Program-made: the position numbers and the translations under genes
Source: Cyanidioschyzon merolae
Lineage: Eukaryota
Direction: 5' to 3' (one strand)
Length of the DNA: 64,000 bases
NCBI GenBank assembly: GCA_000091205.1
Contig: AP006495.2
Part shown: positions 2,110-62,324 of the stretch, piece after piece
How the letters are laid out: each line of letters opens with the position of its first letter
Numbering within the stretch: position 1 is the first letter of the stretch
The notes under the pieces: model-generated
The model's input: the letters and a program-made list of their open reading frames with translations, nothing else
Told to the model about the DNA's origin: nothing
Databases searched by the model: none

Positions 2110-2650
2110 TTGCTCCGCGCCCTACTTCCAAATTCCATTATCCATACTTCTACTCGGATCCAGTGGTCATTGCCTATGTTCTATCGTGCGCCGCATGCCG
2201 GTTGTTTCGTATCCCCCTGTGGCGCTGGAACAGATGTGTCATAGAGCCGGACCTGCATTGCCATACCACTGAGGGCGTCGGATCATGGCGGGGTGCACTC
2301 GACACGGATTCGGGACTGATCAGCATGCTGGGAACCAGCAAGTTGTGCTAATAGACGAACTGCCTGCGGCAGCGCGAAGCGATCCACTAGGAGTCCATTG
2401 CGACCTGAGAAACGTGCAGACGCTGCCTATCTGCACCTAGTTTCAGAATAATATGCGTGGCGGGCGAGCTGCTCAGGTTTCGCGGCTGCAGCAGCCACTG
2501 CAGAGTCGCACGAAGCGCAAACTCGGCAGACTCGTACAGTTCCAGGGACGTTCCGCCTCGAAGGTGAACTTTCAAAGTTACGGGAACGTTTCCCCCTTTC
2601 CAAGTTCATCGTACAGGGCGGCAAGGAATATATTCATATATTGGCTGGTG
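2110..2650 (+). repeat. Dispersed repeat R2, copy 1 (about 550 bp), 5' part of the composite R2+X element
   Basis: Shares conserved blocks with 18300-18840 (reverse complement) and 58660-59200. Examples are ttcgtatgttctatcgtgcgccg, ataccactga(g/a)g, aatgagggcgtcgg, ttcgacacggaatcgg, agagtccactgc and ggt(g/a)aactttc(g/a)aag. The phantom peptide HYPYF(I/Y)SD is shared between copies. Confidence 0.6.
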
Positions 2651-2779
2651 AATCGAGAGTCTCTGTGCTTTATTCGAAATAGCGCGCTCGATGCGCGCAC
2701 CTGAGAGATCAGGCAGTCACGAGAATGACGCGAATTTCAATGTTGGAGGGAAACGCGAGCATGACAGTACGTTTTCTTG

Positions 2780-3930
2780 TTGGTCTACCCTTAATGTTGT
2801 ACGTGCGTTGTATTCGTGGCAAAGTATAATTTTCAGTTTAACTGTGTTTCAGTCCTCAAGCAATTATATTCAACTGATTTTTCGCGATTTATAACAGAAG
2901 CGTTCGAAGTGCGCTCTTTTTCAAAAAGATAAAAACGGAAAGTGATGGTAAAGCACGTAGGTGATCCTGGAGGCCCAATGTCGCTGGCTGCCAGAAAAAA
3001 AAACAAAAAATGGAAGAGCAAAGAGGAACAGGAGAAGACGAAGAAGCAAAAGAGGGAGCCCCTACGTCAAAGGCTGCAAGAAAGACGACTGTACGGCGAG
3101 ATGGCGGTGAAATCCTGTCTTCTTAAACATATGAAGGATCCGTACATGGAAAAGCTGCGAGAGGCTATCAGAAACCGTATTGAGTCGCACACCTTGAGTA
3201 TTGTAAAGGCTTCTTCAGGACTAATGCATTTGGCGAAGAAGATATATCATGACGTGACGAACATCAAAACAGTCGAGTTTCCGGAAGAATTTTTCTCAAC
3301 AAAACCTTTTTCGTCACCTGATGCTTGGCACCGGGGAAGCGTCGAGGGCAGATGAGCGAGTGCATGCCCTCCCCGAGAATTACGCCGAGCACTGCCTCAG
3401 CGGTATTCGATACATGGGTGACGCAGATATTTACGAATACGGGGCGATCAAGGACCTCACGAACCTGAAGAACCATCCGACTATGAACCTCGAACGTTTC
3501 ATGATAGGCGCCGTGTTTGCGCTGTACCCGGGCCTCACTCGCCAGGGGATATGGGCTATCATCAATGGCATCACGAACGATTTCCAGTTCATACTGGAGA
3601 TCGAATTCGTCGGCAAGAAGGCACCATGCAGGAGAAAGAATGAAGCCTCTGTCATCCGTGTGGCTGTTCAAGAGCACCGTGCGGTCTTGGGGCTTGTCAA
3701 ATCCTGCAGAAACGATATCAGAGTTGAAAAAAGATGGTATCCCCTCATCCTGCGGTATTTCCTGTTCCTGAAGCGAGAACTCGAACGCAAGGCCGAGATG
3801 GAGCTGATTTGGTGAAAAATGAAGACTCGGAGAGACCGACGGCTGCACTTCTGGATAAGCGCTTCAACGTCGTTCCGATATGCGAGATCGAGTCGCATTT
3901 TGTGACAATCGATTCCAGCGTCCACTAAGG
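2780..3930 (+). pseudogene. Eroded ORF X, copy A, of the composite repeated element (unknown product), split over three frames
   Basis: Translation segments 2942-3355, 3321-3815 and 3734-3928 are colinear with segments of the inverted copy at 16877-17910. Shared strings include [32 protein letters not shown] and NEDSERxxAxLLxKRFNVV. The frameshifts fall at different places in the two copies, which favours decay over conserved introns. Confidence 0.45.
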
Positions 3931-5140
3931 CACCATGAGGGAGCTCAGTCTGGAGTTCGATGTAGGCAGCAAGGAATTTACGGGTGAAAACCGGGAGAAG
4001 TACAGGAAGAATATCTTCGAATTTAAACGTCTCAATACGAGCAAGCAAAAGGTATTCACTGGGATCATCGAAACCGATGGCGTATCCATGTGAGTGTCCA
4101 CTACCGGCGGTTGAATGCGGACCGTCCACTTCCGTCCTCGACATTGCCCGTGACGAAGCATGAAGATGGGAAGGGGGAGGATCCAGCGACACAGAAAGTG
4201 CATGAGAACGACATTGTCGTTGGCGCGGGCCCCGGAAACACGAATATCGTAACCATTGCACTCCCATATGCAGGAAAGATGGTATCGACGGCAGCTTATG
4301 CCAGAACAACATGCATCTTTTAAATTTATCGATAGCAACATATTACCGAGAATCGGGAAGAATGAATGCAAGATTGAATAGTGAAACGTGGAATGCAGGA
4401 GTAAAGGAGCACATGGAGATGCCATCAGGTGCGAATGCCGCACCCGGAATCGTACATATCCCCAAGTACACGTCAGTTGCTGAGACAACGTCCATACAGG
4501 ACGAATCCGTTTCTACCATACAGCATCGAGGGATGTAACATGTATTCCTATGGCTACTGAATGCAAGCGCACGAAAGACATGAGATGGATCCGCTTTTCC
4601 GACGGGTATTGGACCAGTATTGGCAATGTTACACTGCTCACAGGCATGCAATTTGACGCACGCGGATAAGGTGGGTCACTGCGGCTACTGATGACCAGTT
4701 CCGCTCATTGGGCGTACTTCTCATGGCATTGGATCAACGAAGCGGAGCCGATTCCGCTGCCTTGCGAGCGCCATCAGGTCTCAGGCAGGAGAATTTGCCT
4801 CCTCCATAGACGCTACCACTTTTCACTGAGACCACACGAGAATTATCCCACGGAACAGAGGCATTGTGCAGCAACTTTGCGATTGACATACCAACTTTGA
4901 ACCTCGTTCTTTGCGACACGCCAGCCTGGCTTGGAATTCGCAGGCGTCGGCTCTGGGGAGAAATTCAAAGGCTACTCGCCGCTTTGCCGCACGGCATCAT
5001 CGCTTTCCCGTTTCGTCGTTGTGGCCCGCAAGAAACCTAGCATCGAACTGTAGGGGGCTCTTCGGAAGCAAGGTGTACTATTTCCCACAGCTTGACGTAA
5101 ACGACTGTTCAAGCTGAGCGCTGCGTACGCATTCTCGAAG

Positions 5141-10129: not shown

Positions 10130-10449
10130 ACAAACGCAGGACTAGGGTTTTAGTGCGGATGCTGCAGCGGCGCTACAGCCCTGAGCGCAGACACGTCGGA
10201 TGGCGTCCTTGAGGGCAGCGTTAACCTGTTGCTCGCGAAAGAGTTCAGGTGTATGAGCTGGTTCGTAGCAGCATTCGCGTACACAAGGCAGCATGATCAG
10301 GTTTATCGATCCCAGCTCCTTCAGACATGCTATGACTGTGTCAGTAACTGAAATCAGACACGGAAATGCTTGCTCTGTTCCTGCATTCCGATGTTTCCGA
10401 CCATGTTTCGAACGCACTGCATCGGAATTCGAGATACAGCAATGACGGC

Positions 10450-11400
10450 TTACGGATGCATACGTAGTTTTATGATTATCGGTCGTTTTTCGGAGTCGCT
10501 CCTTTGACTCGTTGCCATCTGGATTTCGCTTTGTTATCGTACTGAAGATGATTCGCGACGCGCTCCAGCAAGAGTTCTCAAAATAACAGGTACCGTTATG
10601 CCGTGCATCAGTGCATGCCTCTAAGCTTCTTCTTTTCTTTACGTGGAGCATGCTCAAGTCACGCATTCTTCAAGTTTTCGATGTTCCTGTTTCAAGGCCG
10701 CTCGGGGCACAGCAATGCGCGCCGCTGATTCCAGGGCGAGAGAAACTTCACGTCGTCCGACTACGACTTGCTCACCAGCTCATGCGGAACCTTCACGGAA
10801 ATGTTGACTGTAGGGAATCCTTCCCGTTCGGAGGGAAAATCCTGCTTTATTTGTGGCCATCAGCGAGAGGCCGTTCGATACACATATGATGCTGCTCACA
10901 TCATTTGTATCCAGAGGCTCCCGTCTCGTCCGTTTGCATGCGAAAAGGTTTCGAGCTAGAACTGGAGCCATCGCAGCGACCGTATACTGTGAAGCGTGCG
11001 TCAGTGCGTGGCAAGAAGGGAGCGTAAACGGGTCAGGACCTGTCGACTTGTTCTCTAGTCTGGACATTCCTTCCGGTTCTTGGTTCATCATGGGCAACAT
11101 GGTGTTCCATGAACCCCCAGTCGAATGGAACAGCGTACGATTGCGCATCCAGACAGAACAGAGACCTTGCTGAACAGTTCGCGTACAGAAAATGCCTGCG
11201 ATCGTAGTTTTTACCCAGTTGGGCGCGGAAACGGACGAGCACATCCCTGGGGGGAGCCTCTGCTTCCAGTCAAGAGCAAGTACCAAGGGAAGAAGCCAGC
11301 GTGCATGCGCTACAAGGCAACCCTGGGAGCAGGAGAAAAAGGTTCAATAGACATCTTGAAACACCTGATCACAGTCAAAATGTGAACGCCGCGACAAGCG
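10450..11400 (+). repeat. Dispersed repeat family R1, copy a
   Basis: Conserved blocks are shared in the same order with 26480-27790, 38040-39340 and 52740-53970. They include ga(t/c)gattcgcgacgc, aagcttc...tttacg...atgctcaa(g/a)tcacgcat(t/a)cttcaag, cgccgctgg, tcgacttgttc, and catcatgg...ttccatgaa...gaatggaacagcgt.cg...tgcgcat. The 3' end of this copy is less clear. Confidence 0.6.
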
Positions 11401-16876: not shown

Positions 16877-17910
16877 TCATTCGCTGACGAGCCCGCCGGG
16901 CTTTGTGTACAGTTTCCACAGCTCCTCGAAATGAGCAGCTTGAGTTGCCAGGAACTCTAGAAAGGCTCGAAAGCTCGCGCATCGGCTCGTCACATTGCTG
17001 AACTCCTTCTTATGGACGTCGAGCTCAAGGCTGATCTCCTCTATGTTGCCGTGAACGGCGCTGGAATCGATTGGCTCAAAGTAGGACGTGATGTTGCACA
17101 GCAGCACGACGTTGAAGCGCTTCCCCAGTAGGAAAGCCTTCTGTCTCTCCGAATCTTCATTTTCTTCCGCATCCAGCTGAATCTCCGCCATGCGTTCGAG
17201 TTATCGGTCCGAAAACACGAAATACCGCAAGATGAGGGAATAACATCTTTTTTCATCTCTGATATCTTTTCTGCTGGATTCGCCAGCCCCAAGACCGCAC
17301 GATGCTCTTGAATAGCCGCACGGATGACGGAAGCCTCATTCATGCTCCTGCGTGATGTCTTCTCGTCGACAGATTCGATCTCCTGTTCATGCAGGCGATC
17401 GTTCATGATGCCATTGATAATCGCTTATTTTCCTCTGCGAGAGATGCCTGGGTAGAGCGCAAATATGGAGCGTTTCATGAAACGCTCCAGGTTCATGGTC
17501 ATATGGTTCTTCAGATTCGTGAGGTACTTGATTGCATCGTAAGTGTGCATATCCGAGTCATTCCTGTGTCGAGCACCGTGAAGCGGTATTCGGCGTGATT
17601 TTCCTGTAGGGTATGTACTCGATCGTTTACGCTCGACGTTTGCCCGGTGCCAAGCATCAAGTGCCGGATAATGGCCTTGTTGAAAAATTCTTCCAGAGCC
17701 TCTAATGTTTTGTTGTCCGCTACGTCGTGGCACGTCTCCTTCACCAAATGCATTATTCCTGAAGAAGCGTTACGAACACTGCTGGAGTACGACGCGACAA
17801 GGTGTCTGGTGGCCTCTCGCAACTTTTGCTTGAAGGGATCCTTGATACCGCGTCGAAGAAAAGCTGTCAGTACAATCTCGTCGTACTGTCGTCTTTCTTG
17901 CAGCATTTGA
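16877..17910 (-). pseudogene. Eroded ORF X, copy B (inverted paralog of 2780-3930), split over four frames
   Basis: ORFs 17511-17906, 17425-17733, 17041-17406 and 16877-17191 are colinear with copy A. Examples are LQERRQYDE...[46 protein letters not shown] and NEDSERQKAFLLGKRFNVV. Confidence 0.45.
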
Positions 17911-18299
17911 CGTCGGGCCTCCGCCCTTTGCTTCTTCGTCTTCTCCTTTTACTCTGAACTCGGCACTGTTTTTCGTTTTTCTCCGGCAACCGGAGATACT
18001 GGTCCTCCAGAATCCTCCGCCTCTATACCCATACGTTTATTTTTTATGTTTCAAAAAGAATTCAATTTGAAAGCATCTGCCATGAACCAAGAAACCTCAC
18101 TGGAATACAGTAATGTGAAGGTTGAAACTCAACTGAGGTCAAACACCGTATTTGGCTATGACTGTAACATCGTTACAGCACGTACGTTAGAGCGGCACGC
18201 TAATCATCAGGATCACGTTTCTCTTGAACGGCGAGAGGCGCGTCGTGTCTCCTGCCTTCCTGATCCCGAGATGCGCATATCGACCGCGCTATAGAAAAA

Positions 18300-18840
18300 G
18301 GAAAGCAACGAACCGCAAACTAGCAATGAGATAGCATTGTTGTCATCGTCTATGGTGCAAATTCAAAGGGAGAAAAGCTTTCCTCATTGCCGAGAGTTTA
18401 CCTTTTAGGTGGAAGGTCCTGCGAGCCAGACGAGTGTGCCCGGTTTGCGCTCCGTGCGACTCTGCAGTGGCGGGTGCTGTGGTGACATCTGAGCGGCTCG
18501 CCCGCAACGCTGTTTATTCTGGGATAAGCGGCTGTTAGGCTGCGTCCGCGGGCGTCACCCTGGCCGTGGTAGACTCTCAGAATATCGCTTCGCGCTGGCG
18601 CAGGCAGTTCGTCTATCAACACAACTTTCTGGTTCCCAGAATGACAATATGTCCCGACCCAGTATCAGGTGTAGCATTCCCGGAGCCGACGTCCTTAGTG
18701 GTGTGGAAAAGCCGTTCATTCTCTATGATGCATCCGCACCAGCGGTACAGGTGCTATGACGGGTGCTCAAATCAGACACTCAGTGCACAATAGAACATAA
18801 GAAACGACCCGCACATCCGAAATGAAGTATGGATAATGGA
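18300..18840 (-). repeat. Dispersed repeat R2, copy 2 (inverted relative to copy 1)
   Basis: The reverse complement aligns block-by-block with 2110-2650 and 58660-59200. Examples are cagaataa.cagcgttgcgggcgagc.gctcag, ccactgcagagtcgcacg(g/a)agcgcaaac and cctaaaaggtaaactctcg. Confidence 0.6.
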
Positions 18841-24406: not shown

Positions 24407-24690
24407 AGCGAAAAGCATCACAGGCGCTTCCAGCAACCGCAGGCTATCCATAGGCTAGATCAGCGTCCATGCGAGCATGCCGTGTCACGAAATACCGTCA
24501 CGAGTAATCAGCTGCACAAGGTATCGATGCTTCATCCGTAGACAATACAGAATGCGAAAAGCATCACAGGCGCTTCCAGCAACCACAGGCTATCCATAGG
24601 CTAGATCAGCGTCCATGCGAGCATGCCGTGTCACGAAATACCGTCATGAGTAATCAGCTGCACAAGGTATCGATGCTTCATCCGTAGACG
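24407..24690. repeat. Tandem duplication, 2 x about 147 bp
   Basis: gcgaaaagcatcacaggcgcttccagcaacc(g/a)caggctatccataggctagatcagcgtccatgcgagcatgccgtgtcacgaaataccgtca(c/t)gagtaatcagctgcacaaggtatcgatgcttcatccgtagac occurs twice in a row. Confidence 0.85.
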
Positions 24691-24969
24691 ATAAAAAATG
24701 TATCACCAATGGCGGCCGATGCACTTTGCAGCAGAGGCCGCTGGACGGGGATGGCGACGCGCCCGGCCCCGCGAATCGTCGTAATTCGAGCACGTGTTAG
24801 AGGCCTGGCAGCACCGATGCAACGCAACGCACTATGAGCTTTGCATGAACCGCAACTGGAACGTTGGGTGAGCTAGGTGCCCGCGACTCGACGCGACGCT
24901 GCCAGACGGTAGCTGGGTCGCACCGGCTGATGCAGGAGGCAGCGCAGCGTTGTACCTTCAAGCACCGCT

Positions 24970-26479: not shown

Positions 26480-27790
26480 GGATTACTGAACTGCTATATT
26501 GATTCCTGCCTTTCGATGGATTTCCGAACGTTTTCTCGATGTACAGACTCTGTATTCGAAGTCCAGCTGCTAGGGTTTATGGATTCATACGCAGTTTTTC
26601 GATTTTCGATCGTTGTTTCGCCGCGGATGCATCGACACATTGCTGCTGGAATTCGTTATCCTACCGGAATGATGATGATTCATGATGCTTTCAAACTACG
26701 GCACGTAAAATTACGAACTCTTATATCCTAATCAAATGTACACGTCTCCGCGCTCTTCATTTCCTAACGTTTGGCATGCATGAATCACGCATTCTGGCAG
26801 TTTTCAACGTTTCTGTTACAATGCAGCTCGTGGGCGCCTCAGTTCTCGCCGCTGGAGTGATGACGAATAAAAAACTTGACGTCGTCCGTTGACGACTTGT
26901 TCCGGAGCCCTTGCCGAAAATCCATCGAACTTTTCACGTCTAGTAATCGATTCCTTCTCAAGGACAAATCAGCCTTGCTTTGCGGATTTCAATGAAAAAA
27001 TACTCTCCATCAGCATCATAACTCTCAGAGGATAAGCTCATAGAGGAACGCGTTTGATTTATTTGCACGGAAAGGGGTCTTAGAGTCGGACTTGGGCCAT
27101 CGCACCGATCGCTTCCCCCGGTATGTGCGTCGCCGCCTCGCACGCAGGAGACCTATATCAATCGAAACTGCTCGACTTGTTCACCAGTGTGTGTTTTCAG
27201 TCCAGGACTTGCCTCATCATCCACGATATCGCATTCCATAAATCCCCTTGGGAATGGAACAGCGTTCGTCTGTGCATGCAGCAGACATTGGGCTCGTTGA
27301 GGCCATTGCCCAGAAGAAGCCCGTGATCCTGAGTTCCGGTACCGGGCATTGAATCGGAAGATGATCTCGAGGGGTGACATGTGTACCCGCCAACGACAGA
27401 TGCCGAGCGATGATGCGAGCCTTCGCGCGCTACCGTTCAGTCTGCTGAGAATGAGGAAGTGTGATGGATATATGCGAACACCTGACCGCTATCAAGTATC
27501 GCCGCTGTACATGGCGCACCGAGACTGAATACGAAGAAGATAAAGTTGAGAAGCGGTGCATAGATCGCAACCATCGTCTTTACATGAAATGCATCGACAA
27601 CCGTCAAAAGCAGCGACATCGGGACCTAAACGTTGCTATCAACATCCTTCGACTGCTGGCTACGAAGCCCGCGGGAGAGATGAGGCAGGCATATTTGGAG
27701 CCACAGATGAGAGACAGAAAACCCAAGTGACCGGAGGAAGCGCTCGCAAAAGCTGGTGTTGATGATGCCACAAAAAGACCCCAACCTCCT
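26480..27790 (+). repeat. Dispersed repeat family R1, copy b
   Basis: Carries all R1 blocks, including the distal ones: atcaacatccttcgactgctgg, gagagacagaaaa and ctggtgttgatgatgcc. Confidence 0.6.
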
Positions 27791-36082: not shown

Positions 36083-36440
36083 GCATGCGACATCCATGAC
36101 GATGCAGGCTATGGCATGTGTCCCATGTATGGTGGGTCTTATAGTCGGCGTCCACAAAAAGATAGCCGATTCCCTGCCGATGATACATCCGCTGTGTAGG
36201 AGGGTGTCTCCATGACGATGCAGGCTATGGCATGTGTCCCATGTATGGTGGGTCTTGTAGTCGGCGTCCACAAAAAGATAGCCGATTCCCTGCCGATGAT
36301 ACATCCGCTGTGTAGGAGGGTGTCTCCATGACGATGCAGGCTATGGCATGTGTCCCATGTATGGTGGGTCTTGTAGTCGGCGTCCACAAAAAGATAGCCG
36401 ATTCCCTGCCGATGATACATCCGCTGTGTAGGAGGGTGTC
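36083..36440. repeat. Tandem repeat, about 3 x 113-129 bp, in a convergent 3' intergenic region
   Basis: The unit gacgatgcaggctatggcatgtgtcccatgtatggtgggtctt(a/g)tagtcggcgtccacaaaaagatagccgattccctgccgatgatacatccgctgtgtaggagggtgtctccat is repeated. It produces three near-identical phantom minus-strand ORFs (MYHRQGIGYLFVDADYKTHHTWDTCHSLHRHG...). Confidence 0.85.
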
Positions 36441-36501: not shown

Positions 36502-37683
36502 TCAGGAAGCGGTCTCGCTCATGCTTCCCTGGAGTGCGCCTTCTACGAGGTATTCCGCAATGGCCATCGACGATGTCGCTGCTGGCGATGGGGCGTTTCG
36601 CACGTGCACAACATTCCGATGGCGCTCGAAATGAAAATCATTTAGAAGCGTGCCATCACGGGTTAGCGCTTGTGCTCGAACACCGTAGAATGAGCGTTCA
36701 AGGTCGTGTGGACCAAGGTCTGGCACCATGCCACGCAGCGCTCGCCAGAGCGCGAGCGGCGCGTTTTCTTGCCACCATTGGCTCAGGCCGAATCGCCAGT
36801 GCTGCTGTACGAGCCGCCAAAAGCCCGGGTACTGAATTGGTGGCCATCCAGCCAGGGTTGCTGTTGGCCCAACCCATACGCGACGCCCATCAACGGAAGG
36901 CGTGAAGTGAACGCCCGCAAACGGGTAACGCTTGTCTGGGACCGGGTAGATGTTGCATCGGCTGAGCCCCAAGCGCTGGATTGCGTCGGGACGAAGCTCG
37001 AAATACTGGCCCTTTACCGGAAGAATGCGCAGCTGCGTCGTCGGCAGCGTGCTCCCGCCAACACATACAAAAACCCAGTCCCAATGCTGATACCAGGCTC
37101 GCGCGTCTACCGCCCATCGCGGGTGTGTCTCTGCGTCTGGTTCGAGTGCTCTCAGTGGAACCTCAGTGCCCAAGCGTAGGGTAAAGCGGTCACCTAGGCG
37201 TTCAGCGGCATCTGCGACAAGCGCTCGGGCGAGAGCCGGATAGTCAATCACTCCAGTATTCGGCGAATAGAGGCTTCGCACAGCACGAACACTTGGCAAG
37301 GGGACGCCATCGAGGAGCTCCAGCCCCTGAACGCCGTTCGCCACTGCGTTTGTAAAGATTTCGGCCAGTCGTCCAGCCTCAGCTTCGTTCCGCGCGACAA
37401 TGTACTTGCCCGCTCGTCGTACAGGAACTCGTTGCCCTGCGGGCGACTCGCAGAACTCGTAGATGTGACGTGCACCCAGGACGCAGAGACGACCTTTGAA
37501 CGAGCCGGGCGCGTAGCCGATTCCGGCGTGTATAACACCGGAGTTGTGACCGGACTGTTCTCCTGCTATGTGTTGCGACTTTTCAAAAACTTCCAATCGG
37601 GTGACCAAACCAGTGTACCGGGTAGCGAAGTAGTGTGCCGTTGCGACGCCGACGAGTCCGGCGCCTACAACGGCGACTCGCAT
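36502..37683 (-). CDS. L2HGDH: L-2-hydroxyglutarate dehydrogenase (FAD-dependent, mitochondrial type)
   Basis: N-terminal Rossmann MRVAVVGAGLVGVATA. EQSGHNSGVIHAGIGYAPGSFKGRLCV matches L2HGDH HQTGHNSGVIHSGIYYKP.SLKAKLCV. The C-terminal VVHVRNAPSPAATSSMAIA matches the L2HGDH signature HVRNAPSPAATSS. Confidence 0.85.
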   Translation of the reverse strand: MRVAVVGAGLVGVATAHYFATRYTGLVTRLEVFEKSQHIAGEQSGHNSGVIHAGIGYAPGSFKGRLCVLGARHIYEFCESPAGQRVPVRRAGKYIVARNEAEAGRLAEIFTNAVANGVQGLELLDGVPLPSVRAVRSLYSPNTGVIDYPALARALVADAAERLGDRFTLRLGTEVPLRALEPDAETHPRWAVDARAWYQHWDWVFVCVGGSTLPTTQLRILPVKGQYFELRPDAIQRLGLSRCNIYPVPDKRYPFAGVHFTPSVDGRRVWVGPTATLAGWPPIQYPGFWRLVQQHWRFGLSQWWQENAPLALWRALRGMVPDLGPHDLERSFYGVRAQALTRDGTLLNDFHFERHRNVVHVRNAPSPAATSSMAIAEYLVEGALQGSMSETAS

Positions 37684-37782
37684 CCACCGCGTCTAATGTT
37701 CTTCTCGAGGAAGCTTCGCGGAGGCCAACACGAAGCTTCAAATCGGGTGTCCGTCCACGCAGTCCAAAACAAAAGCGAGGTG

Positions 37783-37870
37783 TGGACGTGAGGGGAATCG
37801 AACCCCTGGCCTTGACAATGCTAATGTCACGTCGGGTACTGCAGCAGTCATACCACTTGACGACACGCCC
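37783..37870 (-). tRNA. tRNA-Ala (anticodon AGC) carrying a roughly 16-nt intervening sequence at a non-canonical position (D-arm/anticodon-stem junction)
   Basis: Reverse complement: GGGCGTG TC GTCA AGTGGTA TGAC [TGCTGCAGTACCCGAC] G TGACA TTAGCAT TGTCA AGGCC AGGGG TTCGATT CCCCT CACGTCC A. The acceptor stem has the alanine identity pair G3.U70. The D- and T-arms are canonical, and the anticodon loop TTAGCAT is as in eukaryotic tRNA-Ala(AGC). No cloverleaf is possible without removing the 16 nt. No encoded CCA. Confidence 0.6.
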
Positions 37871-38039
37871 GGCAGAGACACCCGCCTGCATTAGACTAGA
37901 TCGCAAAATTAGTATATAAATGGATCTTCATCGAAATGATCCTGGGTGCGAACGCCGTCCGGGGCTGCGTCTCAACCAGAGACGTGCTGGCGTCCTCGTT
38001 CCATGGAGCGCGAACTAGACCCGAGTCAGATTGAAATGG

Positions 38040-39340
38040 GGTACTGAACAGGAAGTTCTTTTCCCCGCTTCACCAAATTTTTCGAATTTTACAGATGCTA
38101 AGCTTCGACATTCGACGTCCAGCGATATGGGATTTCAGATTCATGCGTAAGTTTCGGACTCGTGGGCGCGTTTTCGGGGTGCCTTCTTCGACGATTTGAC
38201 GCTGGAATTCTTTATGTCACCGGAATCAGGACGATTCGCGACGCCCTCGAGGAAGCGTTCGTAAAATGAACTATACGACTGCTCAATTCGTGCCTAAAGC
38301 CTCCAAGCTTCCCATTTCTTTACGACTAGCATGCTCCAATTAAGCATTCTTCAGGTTTTCGATCTTTCTGTTCCGAGGCAACTCGTGTGGGCAGGCATTT
38401 CGCGCCGCTGGAGTCATGGCGTGGAAGCGTAGTCGATGTCGACCCTTGACGAGTTGTTCACATGCTTATGCCGAAAGTTTGTCGAAATCTTCACGTCAAA
38501 TAATAGGTTTTGACTGAATGACAAAATCCTCCTCGAATCGTGGCCATGGACGACTCGCGATTCGGCAGCAACCTGATGCATCTCAGGCGTATATGCACGA
38601 TGAGGCTCTAGTCTCGCACGTTTGCGTGCAAAAGGGTCTTGGACCTGGATATGATCCATTGCGGCGATCGATGTTGGTGGGATGCGCGTCACCGCTTCCC
38701 ACGAGGGAATCGTAAACGGATCGAAAATTCTCGACTTGTTCTCCAACCTGGTTTTTCCCGCACACGTTTCATCATGGATAAAATCGCGCTCCACAAATCC
38801 GATACTGAATGGAGCAGCGTGCGCTTGCGCGTGCTGCCTTCAGTGTACTCGCAGAGGCAATCGTCCAGACGATGCCCGTAATCATAGTGGACGGCACCTG
38901 GCGTGGAAGCGGAGAGAGCAATCACAGGGAGCGCTCAGTGTCCGTCAAGGACATGTATCGGGCGATGAAGCATGCGATGACGCACAAGAAGGCGACACCA
39001 GGACGAGATGATGCGTTGAATGTACATGGACATCTAACGTTAGAGAAGGGTCACCGCTGCAGAGGGCGTCCCGAGACTGCAAAAAAAGAATGAGAAAATG
39101 GCAAGCGAAGCGTTGATCGCGACTTTCGCCTGTGCATGAACTGCATGAACGGCAGCGGGAAGCAGCAACAATGAGGCTTGAGCGCTGTCATTAGCATCCT
39201 TCGACTGCTGACAGCAGCGCTGGAGAGACAGGCGGAACCGGCGTATTGCAAACCGGAGATAAGAGATAGAAAAGTTAGCTATTGCTGACAAAGCCCGTAA
39301 ACGCTGTCTTTGATGACCATGGAAAGAGACCCGATCTTGA
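38040..39340 (+). repeat. Dispersed repeat family R1, copy c
   Basis: Carries the R1 blocks: gacgattcgcgacgccctc, atgctccaattaagcattcttcaggttttcgat, cgccgctggag, tcgacttgttc, catcatggataaaatcgcgctccacaaatccgatactgaatggagcagcgtgcg, cattagcatccttcgactgctg and ttgatgaccatgg. Confidence 0.6.
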
Positions 39341-43142: not shown

Positions 43143-43789
43143 AGAGAGACACGTTCGCCTCTGCGTCTTTTCGAGGCGACCACTCTACCGTATCACCACT
43201 GTAACAAGCTGCTGCGCCCCGGGTGCTTGGTCCGTGCGTCCCCAGACGAAACCGTATTCGCTTCGAGCAAATCACGGGCGTTTCGCGTCGTCGATCAAAA
43301 ACACCACCAGTCATCACGTAAGTGTCGCTGATGCGACGACGCTCGAGCGCTGCGGAGATTGCGCCGGCGCCGGCGCCTCGCCCGCTTTTAGGGATAGCAT
43401 CAACATGCTCGAGCCGGCGTCCTCTGGCGAAGCGGCAACGCCGCTTTCTTTCCGAGTTGCGACTTCAGCGGCGCTAGAGGCGCTACTGCAGCGGACGTTC
43501 ACGACGTGCACTCGGCGCACAGTCGAACGAGAAACATAAACGGTACCCCCGAGGGAAACTATCGGTCGTGGAACTCTGAGGAAGAGCGTACAAGGATGGA
43601 AACTTCACTGCGCGCTGAGAACAAGCGTGCAATCGGGGATCGTTGGTCTGTGTAACTGCTATGTCAAGCAGAAGAAATCGTCGACACGGAGCAGCGTTCA
43701 GCAGCACACGCGAGCGGATGCATGAAGCGTGGCTCTTTGCCATGCTGGCGATGATGGCAGATGTATCAGCAAATCGCAGTGCACGCACA

Positions 43790-44215
43790 TCCGAATACAA
43801 TCATGCATAAACGTGTGAATTCTAGTATACATTCTCGTAAGAATACAATCATGCATAAACATGTGAATTCTAGGATACATTCTCGTACGAATACGATCAT
43901 GCATAAACGTGTGAATTCTAGTATACATTCTCGTAAGAATACGATCATCCATAAACGTGTGAATTCTAGTATACATTCTCGTACGAATACAATCATGCAT
44001 AAACGTGTGAATTCTAGTATACATTCTTGTACGAATACAATCATGCATAAACGTGTGAATTCTAGTATACATTCTCGTACGAATACGATCATGCATAAAC
44101 ATGTGAATTCGAGCATACATTCTCGTAAGAATATAATCATCCATAAACGTGTGAATTCGAGCATACATTCTCGTAAGAATATAATCATCCATAAACGTGT
44201 GAATTCGAGCATTCG
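43790..44215. repeat. 48-bp minisatellite, about 9 units, in a divergent promoter region
   Basis: The unit atgcataaacgtgtgaattctagtatacattctcgtaagaatacaatc is repeated. The period of 48 (16 codons) keeps every frame open, which explains the stacked ORFs 43698-44330(-), 43761-44363(+) and 43766-44242(-). Confidence 0.9.
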
Positions 44216-44295
44216 TGCACGCAGGCTCCATCCGATGCGCACACAGAATGGTATCCGTAGATGTTTCTACGACGTGCCTGTAGCTGGACGTAAGT

Positions 44296-50655: not shown

Positions 50656-51448
50656 ACAATTAGCTAGGCGCACGCACGGATGGTTCACAGCGAGCATGCA
50701 ACCCTGTATGGTTGTGGGCCTGATCGCAGCTCGACTGCCGTAGACGTGGAAATCGGTGCTCGGGGGAACGCCTCGGATTGAGTCCCGGCGAACTTGGCTG
50801 CTCCTGGGCAGCGTCAAGGCCTCGAGTTCCGACACCTGTTGCGTATCGATGTGCAGAGCTGCGCGTACGGAGCGCGAGACTCTTCATAAAAGCGCTCGAC
50901 GCATGCGAGTAGGGGCATGTGCGATCGTGCTTGCAGGCGTTGGAAGTATGCATGAAAGCTCCCTGGGAAGCGGATTAGTGAGACTGTCCACCGCATCGGG
51001 GAATGCAGATCTTCGAACCGAATCCAGATTTGCGTCTTCTGTGCTATGATGAAAGCTGGAGGTAGTGTTTCAGAGGCATTGCGTTTTGCCGAGGTACACG
51101 CGGGCTTCCATCTGCACCCTGCTGCCGTGCTGGTGGGAACTGAGGTACCGCACTCGGAAGTCGATGCAGCATCGTCTGGGGCTGGTGTGAATATGCGGCC
51201 TGGGTGCCAGTGCATCAACCTTCTGATGCATAACATGGTTGGCAGCGGAGGTTGCACCGGATTCATTGCTGGACACTGGCGTTTGACATACGCATGTTCG
51301 GGAATTTGGCGCAGGCGCGCATCGATGCAGGTATCAGTCCAATGTACTTGATATACGCATGTTCGGGTATTTGGCACGAGCGTGCACCGATCCGGGTACC
51401 GTTCCGATACGCGTTAACCGAATGCGGCGTTGGGGCGAGCCAAGCGCC

Positions 51449-51773
51449 TGCACTGGAGATGCCTATCAGTTGGCGATGCGGTCGCAAAAGAGCGACGCAG
51501 CTTAAACAATGTGCACTGGAGATGCCTATCAGTAGGCGATGCGGTCGCAAAAGAGCGACGCAGCTTAAACAATGTGCACTGGAGATGCCTATCAGTTGGC
51601 GATGCGGTCGCAAAAGAGCGACGCAGCTTAAACAATGTGCACTGGAGATGCCTATCAGTTGGCGATGCGGTCGCAAAAGAGCGACGCAGCTTAAACAATG
51701 TGCACTGGAGATGCCTATCAGTAGGCGATGCGGTCGCAAAAGAGTGACGCAGCTTAAACAATGTGCATTGGGG
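51449..51773. repeat. 63-bp minisatellite, about 5 units
   Basis: The unit tgcactggagatgcctatcagt(t/a)ggcgatgcggtcgcaaaagagcgacgcagcttaaacaatg is repeated. The period of 63 (21 codons) produces the phantom ORFs 51430-51747(+), 51414-51761(-) and 51263-51823(-). Confidence 0.9.
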
Positions 51774-52739
51774 ACAGCTGCTGATGCGAATTCGTTCTGG
51801 AGCTCGCGATGCCGAGTGCTCATGGGTACAGAATCTCGGGTCTTGTCCTATGACTGCTCATCGCCGTACAAATGCTTCTGATCCCGGATCATTTACCATG
51901 CGCATGACGATCGTCAAGGCCGGTAGTTTGAGTGCTCCAAAGCTCCGCGGAGCACATGGACATCTTCCCCAGAGCGCTAACGCATGTGGCACGCGGCCTG
52001 AGTCTGTTCGTGTTGTTGACATCGATCACAGCTGTTTTGCTCGGAGCATGCTCGTTCACGCTAGGTTTGCGAATGCATCGAGTCGGGAAAGGCGACGACT
52101 GGTGCAAATTGCTTGGCGTGCTCCCTGCTTGCCGGATTCTAGCCTACGTCAACGGATGAGCGCGCACGACCCTGAGCCGCTCAGTGAGTATGAAAAGCGA
52201 ATGGCATCCTTTCTAGGTCATTTTCTCGTTCCAAAGGTATATATGGATGCATGCAGAACTTGGGCCAGTTCGTCTCGTGAAATGTACCATCGACTTGGCG
52301 CTCCTGTTCTGAGCCGGTCGCCCGATGCGATCACGAAAGCATTTGCGTTTTGGCCCTGCAAATGATGGTGCACTCGTTCGATAGGCAGCGGTCTGAAGCA
52401 AGTGCCTGTCCGTGCGCACAGGCTGACACAGACCCGGTTCATATACGTAAGCCGTCCCGAGCGCCCAACCCGGTCTCACAACGGCGGAGGCGTGTAGCGT
52501 CGAGCAGTCACTGCGGTTTAAAAGCTGTGCGTTCAAGTCAGAGGCGTCTTCGAGCACCAGGGCAGAGGGCGCGCTGGAGAGGCACTTAGCAGTTGTGATC
52601 GATGTATCGTGAGCGTATGACAAGGAAGCCAAAGCCTTCCTGCGGAAAACCCAAGAAGGATATTTTCCTATGATCACCAGCACTCATACAGTGGAGACAA
52701 CTCGCTCCAAAATACTTTTCAGAGGTGTTACACCAGTGA

Positions 52740-53970
52740 CAGACTAGAGCTGAACATTGGACTGCTCGATCTGTTCCTGTCTTTGTATGTTTCCGAATTT
52801 TCTATTGACCTACGGCCATGAGATTCGAGGCGCAGCAATAAGAGCTCACGGATCCGTAGGATGATTTTGGATTTTGGGACGTGCTTTCGGAGCGGCTCCG
52901 ATGACTCTGCTGCTGGAATTAGAAGCTTCAACGGAATCAAAATGATTCGCCACGCCCTCAAAGAAGAGTTCTAAAAATACTCGATACCATCATTCTTTTC
53001 AAATGTAAAAGCTTCCAAGCTTCTCCTTTCCTTACGTGTGGTATGCTCAAATCACGCATACTTCAAGCTGGCGATCTTTCTGTTTCATGCAAACACGTTG
53101 GCGCAGCAGTTGCGCAAATGTATCGACGATAAATGAATCGATACATCATCCCTTGACGAATTCTCCACGAGGTCACGCCAAAAATCCTCCGAACTTGCCA
53201 CGCCATATCTATCAGAAGATATACTTCCGCAGGCCTCCGTCTCATCTGTTTGCATGGAAAAGGGCACTGAACACAGACTTCAGTCATCGCGGCGATCGGT
53301 TTCAGCGGGGACTGCGTCACCGCTTCGTACGAAGGTCGCGGGGTCGGATCGCAAACTCTCGACAGCTTCTCCAGCCTTGATCTAGCCTCTGGTATTTCTC
53401 TCAATATGAAGAACACCACGTTCCAGGAAGCCTCTATTCGACAGAGCAACTTGCTGTTCCATATGCAGCAGACAGGTTACTCGCCGAGCGGGATTCCCCA
53501 CATGAGGTACTTGATCGCAGGGTACGGCACCGGGAACGGAAACGGAGGATGGCATCGAGTTGCACCATCTGTACCCATAAAGTGCCTGTACCGCGCGATG
53601 GAGCGAGCCTTTGCGTGCCGAAGAGCGGCGCTCGGAGGAAGTGTTTTGGCAGACGTAGAGGAACCCCTGACCACATTCATGAATCACCGATGAGAACGTC
53701 GCACTCAATGGTGTGTACAGTCAAGATGAACATGGCAAGCGAAGTGTAGATCACAACCGACCTCTTTGAAAAAAAATCCGTTGACAACGGGATGAAGCCG
53801 CGAAATCGACTCTGTAACGATGATATCAACATCTCTCAGCTGCTGTTATAGGAGCTGTATGTCAAGTAGAAACAGGTGTATTGAGGGCCGGAGATCAGAG
53901 AGAGGCAGAGAAAGCAGTCGCAGAAAAATCCGCCAAAGTCTGGTGTTGATATCAGTGCAAAAAACCCGTT
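52740..53970 (+). repeat. Dispersed repeat family R1, copy d
   Basis: Carries the R1 blocks: aatgattcgccacgccctc, atgctcaaatcacgcatacttcaag, gatatcaacatctctcagctgctg, gagagaggcagagaaagcag and tctggtgttgatatcagtgc. Confidence 0.6.
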
Positions 53971-58659: not shown

Positions 58660-59200
58660 TGTAATTGTCCGCCATGATGCACCGTACTTCCAAGTTTCAT
58701 TACACATACTTTCTCTCGGATATGCTGGTCGCTTCGTATGTTCTATCGTGCGCCGAGTGCGTGCCGTCAGCGCCCGCCGTGGCACTTATACCACTGAAGC
58801 AGGTGCTGCACGGGGCCAGAGCGGCTCTGGCATACCAATGAGGGCGTCGGCTCGAGGCGTGGTTCATTCGACACGGAATCGGAGTACATAATCATTCTGG
58901 AAGCCTGCGACAGCGCGAACCGATCTACTAAGAGTCCACTGCAACCGGAGCGACGCCCAGACGCAGTAAAGCTGCGTCTAGTCCCAGAATGAACTGCGTT
59001 GCGGACGAGCTGCGCGGGTCTCGCCACAGTACCTGCCGCTGGAGGAAGCATGAAGCACGAGTCTTTCAGACTCGTCCGGCTCGCGGGACCTTCCGCCTAA
59101 AAGGTAAACTTTCGAAGATATGGAAACTTTTTCCCTTATTTTAACATTCATCGTACGTTATGTAGGGAACATCGATACGCACTCACAGAAGACTAGCCCG
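58660..59200 (+). repeat. Dispersed repeat R2, copy 3 (R2 part only)
   Basis: Aligns with 2110-2650. Examples are ttcgtatgttctatcgtgcgccg, ataccactgaagcagg, aatgagggcgtcggctcgagg, ttcgacacggaatcggag, agagtccactgcaaccgg and ggtaaactttcgaagatatggaaactttttccc. Confidence 0.55.
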
Positions 59201-59553: not shown

Positions 59554-62324
59554 TGAGCGTTGGATCGCTGCACGTGGCGCAGCAACACGTTCAGGCATTC
59601 TCGGAAGCGAGGTTTCAAAATTCTTTTCCTTCCAGCAGGCCGTGTTACATACACTGCGTCGAGCTTCAGTTTTGTTATCGCACGAATCTTTTATCGAAAG
59701 AGTCCGGAAGAATATGGACGGATGTGAGCCCCGTATCCGGAACACCCGTGAACTGTAGATTGACGTGCAGCTTCAAGTATCGGACAGCTAGAAGGGCGTT
59801 CGGCGAGCGAGAAGCCTTGCGAGCGCGCATGGCGCCGTTCATCTCATTTTTTGGAAGAGTCTGCAGGTTGATGTGTGTCACAAGGGAGGCCCTTACCATG
59901 GTATCAGCCTGATCTTTCCCCTCCGGCAGCTTTTCTTTCCCTGTAACCCATCGTCCTCTATTCAGGAGCATCTTTCTCTTCTTTGCAAGGTGCGCTCTTT
60001 CCTTCCTCATTTACTTGGCGCTGTGGCTTGGATACGTTTTCCAGACTCCATATCTGTTTTCTTCCGGGGAATTCAGACGCACAGGATGGAGAATACGACT
60101 GAAATTCGCCGATTCTGTTTATGCGTCAAAGATTTGTCAAATACATGTTCATCACCGTGTCCGTGGTGAGCGCACCAAGTAACTGGAGCGCACCTGTCTG
60201 CAACCGCCCGCGCACGAGCAAAGAAGCAAGAAACCTGTTCGGCACTGGAGAAGTGAAAGAAAGATGTGGCGAAAAACGATGCCACGGATGCAAACGACTC
60301 GTCCATTGATCGTTGAGCGTCGAACTAGGGTTTTACAACAGATAAGAGGCATTGGACTGGATTGAACCAGGTAGAACAGGCTGGCTCGAATAGCAGCTGA
60401 GCGCCAATCGCAGCTGGTTACTCGTTGCCCGCTTTTGACTGATGGAAACCCACGTCATCTAAGAGCGGAATAGCAGAGTGTGGAAAGCACGTACCACGAA
60501 GCATGCGTCGACGACGGATGAGGTATTCAAAGATGCCTCACAGTTGGCGATTTGGAAGCGGTCACATGATTGAATCCCCGTTGGCGTTCATGTTGTCATG
60601 ATGCTCGCTTTTCTCTCGTTTACGAACAGCGGTTTGCCGCTCTTTGAGCATTCACATGCAGTTCTACCATTTCTTCCGATTAGAGTCTGATCGTGTTAGA
60701 GGAACACCCGCCCATAGTTTAAAACGCTCTCGTGCTCATGGGAAATCGGTCTCATGTTGTTCAACGAGCGACGGTCTCCCACAGAGCCGAGGTTTTTTTC
60801 TACGTCTATTTCGAGTCTGCATGTAAGCGTTCATGTGAAAGGTACAGAAACTTTGTGTTTAATCGCTTTTTGGTGACATTTTTAGGGAATGTAAGAAGCG
60901 GAATGGACCGAGGAACAAACAGTGGCATAGATCGAGTTTGATTGCTTCAGTTTCCCGTGTACGACGTAAAGTGCAACGACTGTGGCATAGGCGGTTCATC
61001 CATCCGCCGACCATAGAATAACTGACTTTGACGAAAGAGACAGTATTTTCACAAGTTAGCCGCGACAGGGTAGAGTACATCAAATACCCACCTGGAGTCT
61101 ACAGGATATATCCATGTATTGAACAAGTGCGAGAAAAACGAACAAGACAAAAACGGCTTGCAGGTAGAGATGTTCTCAAATTCACTGTTTTAAATAGAAG
61201 AACTTGCGCTCCACCATATCAGAATAAAATGAAGCGGGTCTTCTGATACGGACGTATAGACTAGAGATTGGGTCGTTGCCCGATTTCATCGAAACCAGTC
61301 TTTGTGGACTTGTTTCGCAACTGTCTCATATTGCTCTCTTATTCCAAGCTTTGAATAGGGCTGGCTCCTTTGTTCCTCCAGCTCGATTCGTACTTAGAAT
61401 CAGGAGCTTCTTCTCGACCATCTTCTCAGCGAGTACGCTGTCAGCTGCATGCGCGAGCGCACATTGTACCATTTGATAGCGGACTTGTGCATCATGATGT
61501 TTTCCGTGATGAAACAAGTACGAGAATGAGTTTCCAGGTTGGATATTAATTGAAGATATTTCGATCCATTTACACTTGCTTCGGGCAAATCGTTGGTACA
61601 CGTTCCGCTGCAAGCGATTGCTGCGGTAACTCTAGACCGAGTGCAAGACCCTCGTCAATGCAAACAGGAGAGTCGGGAGCCTCTCCGAGCGGTATCCCGA
61701 AATGAGGTATCATGCTGGTACAAAATACCATTTCGTCAATGGTCAAATAGATATGAATCTTTGTCTTTCGAACGAAATCGGTGGTTTGCAGAGAGTCCTA
61801 CAGAGCACTTCCGGCATGATCTTGTGAGCAACTCGTCAAAGATTGACGTCGAGCGTTTACCTCTTCAGTCCTATGGCGCGAATCGCTGCGACTACGAGTT
61901 GTCTTGGAAATGGTGGACAGAAAATTTGGCGCATGCGCGATATGAGCATACAACAGGTATAAAACGGAGAAGAATCGCGGCTTTTTCATAAGAGTAAGAT
62001 ACCAATATCGATTGGGTTACGAACTTTTGCATACGTACGTCGCGAATCATCCTGACCCCAGTGACGGAACGAATGCCACGTGCAGTGTCGATAGAGCAGC
62101 CCCCCCCCCCAAAACGACAGGGAAACATCCGAAAACGACATATGAATCCGTACGCCCTCCTAGCCGAAAATGGGTTATCGAGGCTGTACATCCGAAAAAA
62201 AATGTCCGGAAAAAAAAAAAAAAACCTGGAACGGAGCGATCAGCCCAAAAATCCATAGGAATCTGAAACGACTGGACAATAGTTTCGCCAACTGCCTCGC
62301 CCCGAGTCCGCGACATACGCAGAA

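Follow-up and report, generated by a model that had tools for sequence, protein, structure and literature searches.

[quoted passage not shown] 2013, Sci Rep 3:2321; PMC3728597). According to the running text of that report, 27 of the 43 tRNA genes of C. merolae are intron-containing, and the 42 introns range from 11 to 69 bp in length, with five of them situated in the D-stem and 14 in the D-loop. All of them are stated there to be processed through BHB motifs, which include strict and relaxed forms and even motifs that are devoid of the central helix (H). Splicing has been verified by RT-PCR for three tRNAs other than the one considered here, and the RT-PCR and northern evidence referred to in the main text concerns tRNA-Asn, tRNA-Phe, tRNA-Ile and tRNA-Gly(CCC). 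The catalogue of tRNA genes is described as giving a sufficient anticodon repertoire, and the running text reports no sequence relationship of the C. merolae introns to archaeal introns (PMC3728597).

The BHB motif comprises a 4-bp helix flanked by two bulges of 3 nt each, and in the canonical pre-tRNA this helix includes the anticodon nucleotides 34 and 35, so that each cut lies two nucleotides 3' of the helix (PMC4090602). The part of the intron that forms the helix is held by the constraints of the motif and the remainder is free to vary (PMC4090602). Non-canonical introns, including introns of the D-arm, are also known from the red-algal-derived nucleomorph of Guillardia theta (Kawach et al. 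2005, as cited in PMC3978253 and PMC4090602).

In the current analysis we have considered a locus on the minus strand of a 64-kb stretch of DNA, referred to here as the window. With a probability of roughly 88%, the locus is a functional nuclear tRNA-Ala(AGC) gene of Cyanidioschyzon merolae 10D that has one ectopic intron of 16 nt, placed between tRNA positions 23 and 24 in the 3' strand of the D-stem (Table 1). This explanation is built on the sequence anatomy, the conservation among orthologues and the register of the splicing motif, from which we infer transcription, cleavage and ligation. The phenomenon is already known from C. merolae and the tRNA-Ala(AGC) gene itself is, in our assessment, almost certainly known too. 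The Ala/AGC gene is unmentioned in the running text of PMC3728597, PMC3978253, PMC9602550, PMC4033280 and PMC13578239; the catalogue of Soma et al. is given in figures. The additions made here are small. They consist of the resolution of the junction to 23/24, the conservation of the intron position and of a helix segment across lineages, and the demonstration of a misannotation by ARAGORN.

The gene shares with the ectopic-intron tRNA genes described in the main text of Soma et al. the same genome, a D-stem intron at a position other than 37/38, an intron length within 11-69 bp, a BHB-type motif at the junction, a TATA-like element ahead of the gene and a T-stretch behind it (PMC3728597). It agrees in this respect with the original prediction, which had classed the intron with the ectopic ones found in cyanidiophyte red algae. 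The non-canonical BHB introns of archaea, as summarised for the Crenarchaeota (Thermoproteales) and Nanoarchaeota, are similar in having a 4-bp helix with the cuts two nucleotides past it (PMC4090602). They resemble it further in their occurrence at any position of the cloverleaf and in a constrained helix-forming part next to a variable remainder (Marck and Grosjean 2003, as cited in PMC4090602). Unlike the archaeal genes, the tRNA-Ala gene is eukaryotic and nuclear, and the enzyme described for its host is of the Sen2/Sen34/Sen54 type without a recognisable Sen15 (PMC3728597). The nucleomorph introns of Guillardia theta provide a further likeness in their red-algal derivation and D-arm positions, but the tRNA-Ala intron differs when set beside them in its clear central helix and 5' bulge. 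With the canonical 37/38 introns it would have in common a protein-catalysed splicing by endonuclease and ligase with a relaxed BHB-like geometry, and it differs from them in lying at 23/24.

Table 1. Features of the tRNA-Ala(AGC) locus, in coordinates of the window
Feature	Position	Strand	Basis
Whole tRNA-Ala(AGC) gene	37783..37870	minus	Rfam RF00005; ARAGORN on spliced form
5' exon, tRNA positions 1-23, GGGCGTGTCGTCAAGTGGTATG	37849..37870	minus	Invariant in three lineages; end from BHB register and Cyanidiococcus orthologue
Ectopic intron, 16 nt, ACTGCTGCAGTACCCG, junction 23/24 in D-stem	37833..37848	minus	Sole BHB-compatible cut pair yielding mature tRNA
3' exon, tRNA positions 24-73, ACGTGACATTAGCATTGTCAAGGCCAGGGGTTCGATTCCCCTCACGTCCA	37783..37832	minus	Invariant in three lineages
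Anticodon AGC	37820..37822	minus	Sequence; ARAGORN cloverleaf of spliced form
Helix H 5' strand, D-loop G18 G19 U20 A21	37851..37854	minus	Pairs with intron UACC
Helix H 3' strand, UACC, intron -6 to -3	37835..37838	minus	Invariant within otherwise variable intron
Intron hairpin h', CUG-CUG-CAG, 3 bp and 3-nt loop	37839..37847	minus	Directly inside 5' bulge (U22 G23, cut, A)
TATA-like TTTATATA (-50 to -43) then AATTT; putative promoter	37906..37920	minus	Invariant upstream blocks
T-stretch TTTTGTTTT; putative Pol III terminator	37766..37774	minus	Starts 9 nt past discriminator

The gene, GGGCGTGTCGTCAAGTGGTATGACTGCTGCAGTACCCGACGTGACATTAGCATTGTCAAGGCCAGGGGTTCGATTCCCCTCACGTCCA, has a length of 88 nt unspliced and 72 nt spliced, and does not encode CCA. 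It is matched by the Rfam family RF00005 with 48.3 bits (gathering score 29; E-value 2.9e-7 for the whole window) over model positions 1-71 of 71, with 17 nt in the D-arm aligned as an insertion. This is the sole Rfam match in the 64-kb window. On deletion of the 16 nt, the resulting 72-nt sequence is called tRNA-Ala(agc) by ARAGORN with a flawless cloverleaf, and the cloverleaf is also the minimum free energy (MFE) structure of the spliced RNA in ViennaRNA. The proposal from the bare sequence, that the minus strand is a tRNA-Ala(AGC) once 16 nt are removed, is confirmed by the Rfam score and by the results of ARAGORN and ViennaRNA on the spliced form, and every structural element that had been listed with it (the G3:U70 pair, the D-stem and loop, the anticodon arm and the T-arm) is present.

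The acceptor stem GGGCGTG/CACGTCC contains G3:T70 and is followed by the discriminator A (A73), both of which are kept in all three lineages compared below. The pair G3:U70 and A73 together make up the alanine identity set. The D-stem is GTCA/TGAC with the loop AGTGGTA, the anticodon arm TGACA-TTAGCAT-TGTCA has a stem of 5 bp and a 7-nt loop with AGC, and the T-arm reads AGGGG-TTCGATT-CCCCT. The standard conserved positions of tRNAs, namely U8, A14, G18 G19, A21, U33 and the T-loop TTCGANT, are all found.

The open reading frame at 36502-37683, which lies 99 nt downstream of the tRNA on the same strand, encodes a 393-residue protein similar to L-2-hydroxyglutarate oxidase/dehydrogenase. Its product is identical to BAM80947.1/XP_005536983.1 of C. 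merolae 10D, encoded there on a contig of 866,983 bp, which confirms the source taxon for which the tRNA gene had been put forward as a marker. The next relatives of this protein are found in Cyanidiococcus yangmingshanensis (75%), in a third lineage (73%) and in Cyanidium caldarium (56%). Contigs with orthologues were obtained via this neighbouring gene, and their tRNA loci form three groups: the C. merolae-like metagenome contigs L001 and L002; L007 from Cyanidiococcus yangmingshanensis GCA_026122185.1; and L008 and L009, metagenome contigs of the third lineage. The identity of the neighbouring protein among the three lineages is 73-77%, and since the proteins of L007 and L008 share 77% with each other, the three lineages are roughly equidistant. 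Three independent lineages are therefore compared in what follows.

In all three, the tRNA is located 92-99 nt upstream of the neighbouring open reading frame and on the same strand (window 36502-37870; L007 3819-5182; L008 3821-5182), which puts a Pol III gene inside the region upstream of a Pol II gene. The exons are identical at 72 of 72 aligned positions. The intron interior, the leader and the trailer have diverged, the leader and trailer to the extent of being largely unalignable. The orthologous introns are TCGCTCCCTGCGTACCCG (18 nt) in Cyanidiococcus and ACGCAACGCGTACCTG (16 nt) in the third lineage, against ACTGCTGCAGTACCCG (16 nt) in the window. The invariance of the 72 exon positions amid a diverged intron interior and diverged flanks is indicative of purifying selection on the spliced tRNA and argues for a functional gene.

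At the syntenic locus of Cyanidium caldarium (L010) the neighbouring gene is present and the tRNA is absent by Rfam and ARAGORN, hence the arrangement is not traceable deeper. An exact-match scan of metagenomes with a 21-mer of the anticodon arm returned solely C. merolae-like contigs with the same intron, and no further lineage. One metagenome contig, L005, has GTGTTAT in place of GTGGTAT in the D-loop (at about 88-96), corresponding to a change of G19 to T. Such a change would destroy the universal G19 as well as helix H, and is likely to be a sequencing error or a rare allele.

When given the unspliced gene, ARAGORN returns a different identity. For the unspliced window (37782-37870) and for L001 and L002 it calls tRNA-Tyr(gta), that is a class II tRNA-Tyr(GUA) with a long variable arm. 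The true anticodon arm is taken in this call as the long variable arm and part of the insert is folded as an anticodon arm, whose stem has a C-A mismatch and two G-U pairs. The same program gives Gly(acc) for L008 (3821-3909) and nothing for L007 (3819-3908). As the supposed anticodon is not conserved among the orthologues and the AGC arm, there treated as a variable arm, is invariant, the tRNA-Tyr reading was rejected and its chance is close to nil. The gene also has G1:C72 in addition to G3:U70 and A73, which again stands against tyrosine. Eukaryotic cytosolic tRNA-Tyr is of class I with C1:G72. Annotation pipelines without models of ectopic introns will mislabel cyanidiophyte genes such as this tRNA-Ala(AGC).

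The upstream region of the gene contains only two blocks that are invariant in the three lineages within 80 nt, namely TTTATATA (37920-37913, positions -50 to -43) and AATTT (37910-37906). Downstream, TTTTGTTTT begins 9 nt past the discriminator and its TTTTG is invariant in the three lineages. [quoted passage not shown] The conserved upstream element and the T-stretch of the gene fit this picture, a fit that is no proof of function. A scan for promoters and terminators of bacterial type gave nothing, which is irrelevant to a Pol III gene.

The boundary of the intron has been described as ambiguous in the original prediction, and for the window sequence taken alone this is correct. Due to a GAC repeat, the junctions 22/23, 23/24, 24/25 and 25/26 are indistinguishable in their product. 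The repeat had been read as TGAC, and its actual extent is GAC (pre-tRNA positions 22-24 and 38-40), the second copy reading CGAC. In Cyanidiococcus the first copy of GAC reads GTC, and in consequence only 22/23 or 23/24 gives a mature tRNA common to all three lineages. The orthologues therefore reduce the four-fold ambiguity left by a single sequence, and the geometry of the BHB motif chooses between the two junctions that are left.

All cut pairs were scanned for the arrangement of 4 bp, then two nucleotides, then a cut, on both strands. Many spurious 4-bp matches were obtained, and exactly one pair of cuts, after G23 and before A24, leads to the mature tRNA in the window and in L008. The register of L007 is based on a direct test of 23/24, and this test, applied to all three orthologues, yields four pairs of helix H together with a 3-bp intron hairpin (h'), all of them Watson-Crick pairs. 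The BHB rule picks 23/24 as the predicted junction, with the intron at 37848-37833 of the minus strand within the 3' strand of the D-stem, in place of the 25/26 junction that had been proposed earlier. In the 23/24 register the excised intron RNA would be ACUGCUGCAGUACCCG, and in the 25/26 register UGCUGCAGUACCCGAC. The exon junction of the predicted spliced RNA is ...GGUAUG joined to ACGUGACA...

Helix H of this motif is made up of G18 G19 U20 A21 paired with UACC of the intron (-6 to -3). Its four pairs are all Watson-Crick and invariant, with pair probabilities of 0.82-1.0 in all three precursors in ViennaRNA; owing to this invariance, helix H offers no evidence from covariation. The 5' bulge consists of U22 G23 and, after the cut, one variable nucleotide (N), and is closed on its inner side by h', while the 3' bulge consists of N G followed, after the cut, by A24. 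The H-forming part of the intron, GUACC(C/U)G, is conserved and the rest of the intron varies. C. merolae has CUG:CAG in the hairpin h', against CGC:GCG in both L007 and L008; two pairs have thus changed on both sides, and the hairpin loops (CUG, UCCCU and AAC) differ in all three. As L007 and L008 have the same h' sequence, both compensatory changes may go back to a single evolutionary event. RNAalifold reported no covarying pairs on the MAFFT alignment of the three lineages.

The strength of the motif is uneven. Among shuffled introns, about 2-4% form helix H, and about 0.04-0.13% form H together with a 3-bp h' at the 23/24 register. The hairpin h' is thermodynamically weak, with a probability below 0.1 in ViennaRNA. 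The MFE structure extends H by U22:G, and in L007 and L008 by G23:C as well, into a continuous helix of 5-7 bp without a 5' bulge; in the window sequence this extended helix carries a G-A mismatch. RNAalifold agrees with the MFE in favouring the helix between D-loop and intron and in giving no support to h'. The BHB model has been kept over the extended helix since it is the sole model that places both cuts for a mature tRNA and is intact in three lineages.

The outer helix (h) has 0 bp next to H, and six unpaired nucleotides of the 5' strand lie between G10 and G18. The strict form of the motif, hBHBh', has h and h' of at least 2 bp and two 3-nt bulges. Here h' has 3 bp in three of the three lineages, with a probability below 0.1, and h has 0 bp. 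In view of the lack of an outer helix abutting the 3' bulge, the motif is assigned to the relaxed HBh' class and not to strict hBHBh'; the definition of the C. merolae ectopic-intron genes admits this relaxed class. It is in this regard unlike the D-stem intron 1 of tRNA-Phe(GAA) and the 12/13 intron of tRNA-Ile(UAU), which are given as strict hBHBh' in the main text of Soma et al., the tRNA-Ala motif being relaxed and HBh'-like (PMC3728597). The local motif energies computed with RNAeval for the three precursors are -0.1, -3.5 and -0.9 kcal/mol. The energies stated for the motifs of C. merolae in that text extend from -11.2 to +1.15 (PMC3728597), and the values obtained here are at the weak end of this range, with the caution that the two calculations are not strictly comparable.

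The weakness of h', which defines the 5' bulge, bears on whether the same gene and the same mature tRNA could be served by another cut register (25/26, 22/23 or 24/25), perhaps at an unstructured site or one lacking H. Such processing has a parallel in C. merolae, where the main text of Soma et al. includes motifs without a central helix among those processed, as for intron 2 of tRNA-Phe (PMC3728597), and the GAC repeat makes the four registers identical in product. The replacement of the first GAC by GTC in Cyanidiococcus, on the other hand, would leave a defective D-stem with 24/25 or 25/26, and the geometry of helix, two nucleotides and cut occurs in the scans of the window and of L008 only at 23/24, in agreement with the direct test in three of three orthologues. 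We consider another register unlikely for these reasons, and the predicted junction at 23/24 is retained.

Helix H bears in a similar manner on the possibility of a decaying or non-functional tRNA gene, or of a gene in which the 16 nt are kept as an oversized D-loop and never spliced. The Rfam alignment would suit the latter, as it models the gene as an ordinary tRNA whose D-loop holds 17 inserted nucleotides. In the unspliced fold, however, G18 G19 are sequestered in helix H. Such sequestration is incompatible with the elbow formed by the D-loop and the T-loop. The identity of all 72 exon positions in three lineages whose flanks and intron interiors have diverged speaks against decay, as do the conserved promoter-like element and the terminator. 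In an organism with 43 tRNA genes the decoder of GCU and GCC is, by inference, unlikely to be dispensable. Taken with these points, an unspliced or decayed gene is very improbable, and the functional, intron-containing tRNA-Ala(AGC) gene remains the preferred explanation.

A pathway for the expression of this gene can be proposed from the sequence features. Pol III would transcribe it from the conserved upstream TATA-like element and would stop at the T-stretch. In the precursor, G18 G19 U20 A21 of the D-loop would pair with UACC of the intron, and these four pairs would make up the central helix of a BHB-like structure. The 5' splice site would then lie in the 3-nt bulge of U22 G23 and the first intron nucleotide, A, with the 3-bp intron hairpin closing its inner side, and the 3' splice site would lie on the other strand two nucleotides past the helix (C G, cut, A24) in a looser internal loop. 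The tRNA-splicing endonuclease is predicted to cut after G23 and before A24, and a ligase to join the halves. The joining would restore the D-stem pairs C12:G23 and U11:A24 and would free G18 G19 for their elbow contact with the T-loop, and processing of the ends and addition of CCA would follow.

The enzyme for such a reaction has been discussed by Soma et al., whose running text lists homologues of Sen2, Sen34 and Sen54 in C. merolae and no recognisable Sen15 (PMC3728597). The yeast-type ruler measures from the mature domain, with Sen54 in contact with the D-arm, and is stated not to be expected to work on a D-arm intron (PMC3728597). Since Sen54 would clash with a disrupted D-arm, these authors speculate that the D-arm introns are handled by a Sen2-Sen34 form (PMC3728597).

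The comparison of the lineages shows the predicted ectopic intron of tRNA-Ala to be old within the Cyanidioschyzon/Cyanidiococcus clade. In the literature searched, no report of the conservation of a D-stem tRNA-Ala intron across genera was found. The gene illustrates the peculiarity of C. merolae, with archaeal-style intron positions and BHB splicing, and the age of its intron has a modest bearing on whether introns of this kind are relics that evolve neutrally or features that are maintained. The intron position, the segment GUACC(C/U)G and the hairpin, which are shared by Cyanidioschyzon, Cyanidiococcus and the third lineage, might be older than the divergence of the three and be kept by selection instead of being neutral, possibly for a role in the sequestration of G18 G19. 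We regard this suggestion as tentative and unlikely. If it were true, G18 G19 would be sequestered until splicing, and an order would be imposed on the folding, modification or quality control of tRNA-Ala.

The window as a whole has about 55% G+C and is dense in open reading frames, in keeping with its assignment to C. merolae. Dispersed copies of a repeat measuring about 0.5-1.1 kb, probably the R1 named earlier, are found at 38102-39273, 10419-11146, 26632-27721, 52928-53377 and, inverted, at 61406-61852, with nucleotide identities of 64-72%. Between the short minus-strand open reading frames in the copies of this repeat the amino-acid identity is 33-48%, and none of them matches a Pfam family. 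R1 may be a decayed gene family or the relic of a mobile element.

The nearest copy of R1 has its start near 38102, at a distance of some 230 bp from the tRNA, and such proximity could suggest that the tRNA is a tRNA-derived, SINE-like or dispersed-repeat fragment tied to R1, a scenario that had been named in the original prediction as a refutation of the gene. The repeat, however, begins at least 230 bp from the tRNA, which lies outside it, and the other copies of R1 are without a tRNA. In a sensitive BLAST search of the window the tRNA matches only itself, a single T-loop motif of the form GGTTCRANTCC occurs in the 64 kb, and the synteny of the tRNA with its neighbouring gene is kept in three lineages. 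The SINE-like or dispersed-repeat reading has accordingly been rejected on the single copy and the single T-loop motif in the window, and there is only the faintest chance of its being correct.

Other repeats of the window are tandem or inverted. At 36093-36440, directly adjoining the L-2-hydroxyglutarate oxidase-like gene on its 3' side, a 116-nt unit occurs three times in tandem with 99% identity. Long open reading frames contain tandem arrays with periods of 48 nt (about 12 units; 43696-44271) and 63 nt (about 7 units; 51386-51837), both multiples of three, and a 146-nt unit is present twice (24408-24699). The segments 2216-3978 and 17001-18751, each of about 1.8 kb, are inverted with respect to each other with 71-82% complementarity, and a partial third copy is found at 58679-59133. 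The two segments represent another diverged repeat or a pair of paralogous genes.
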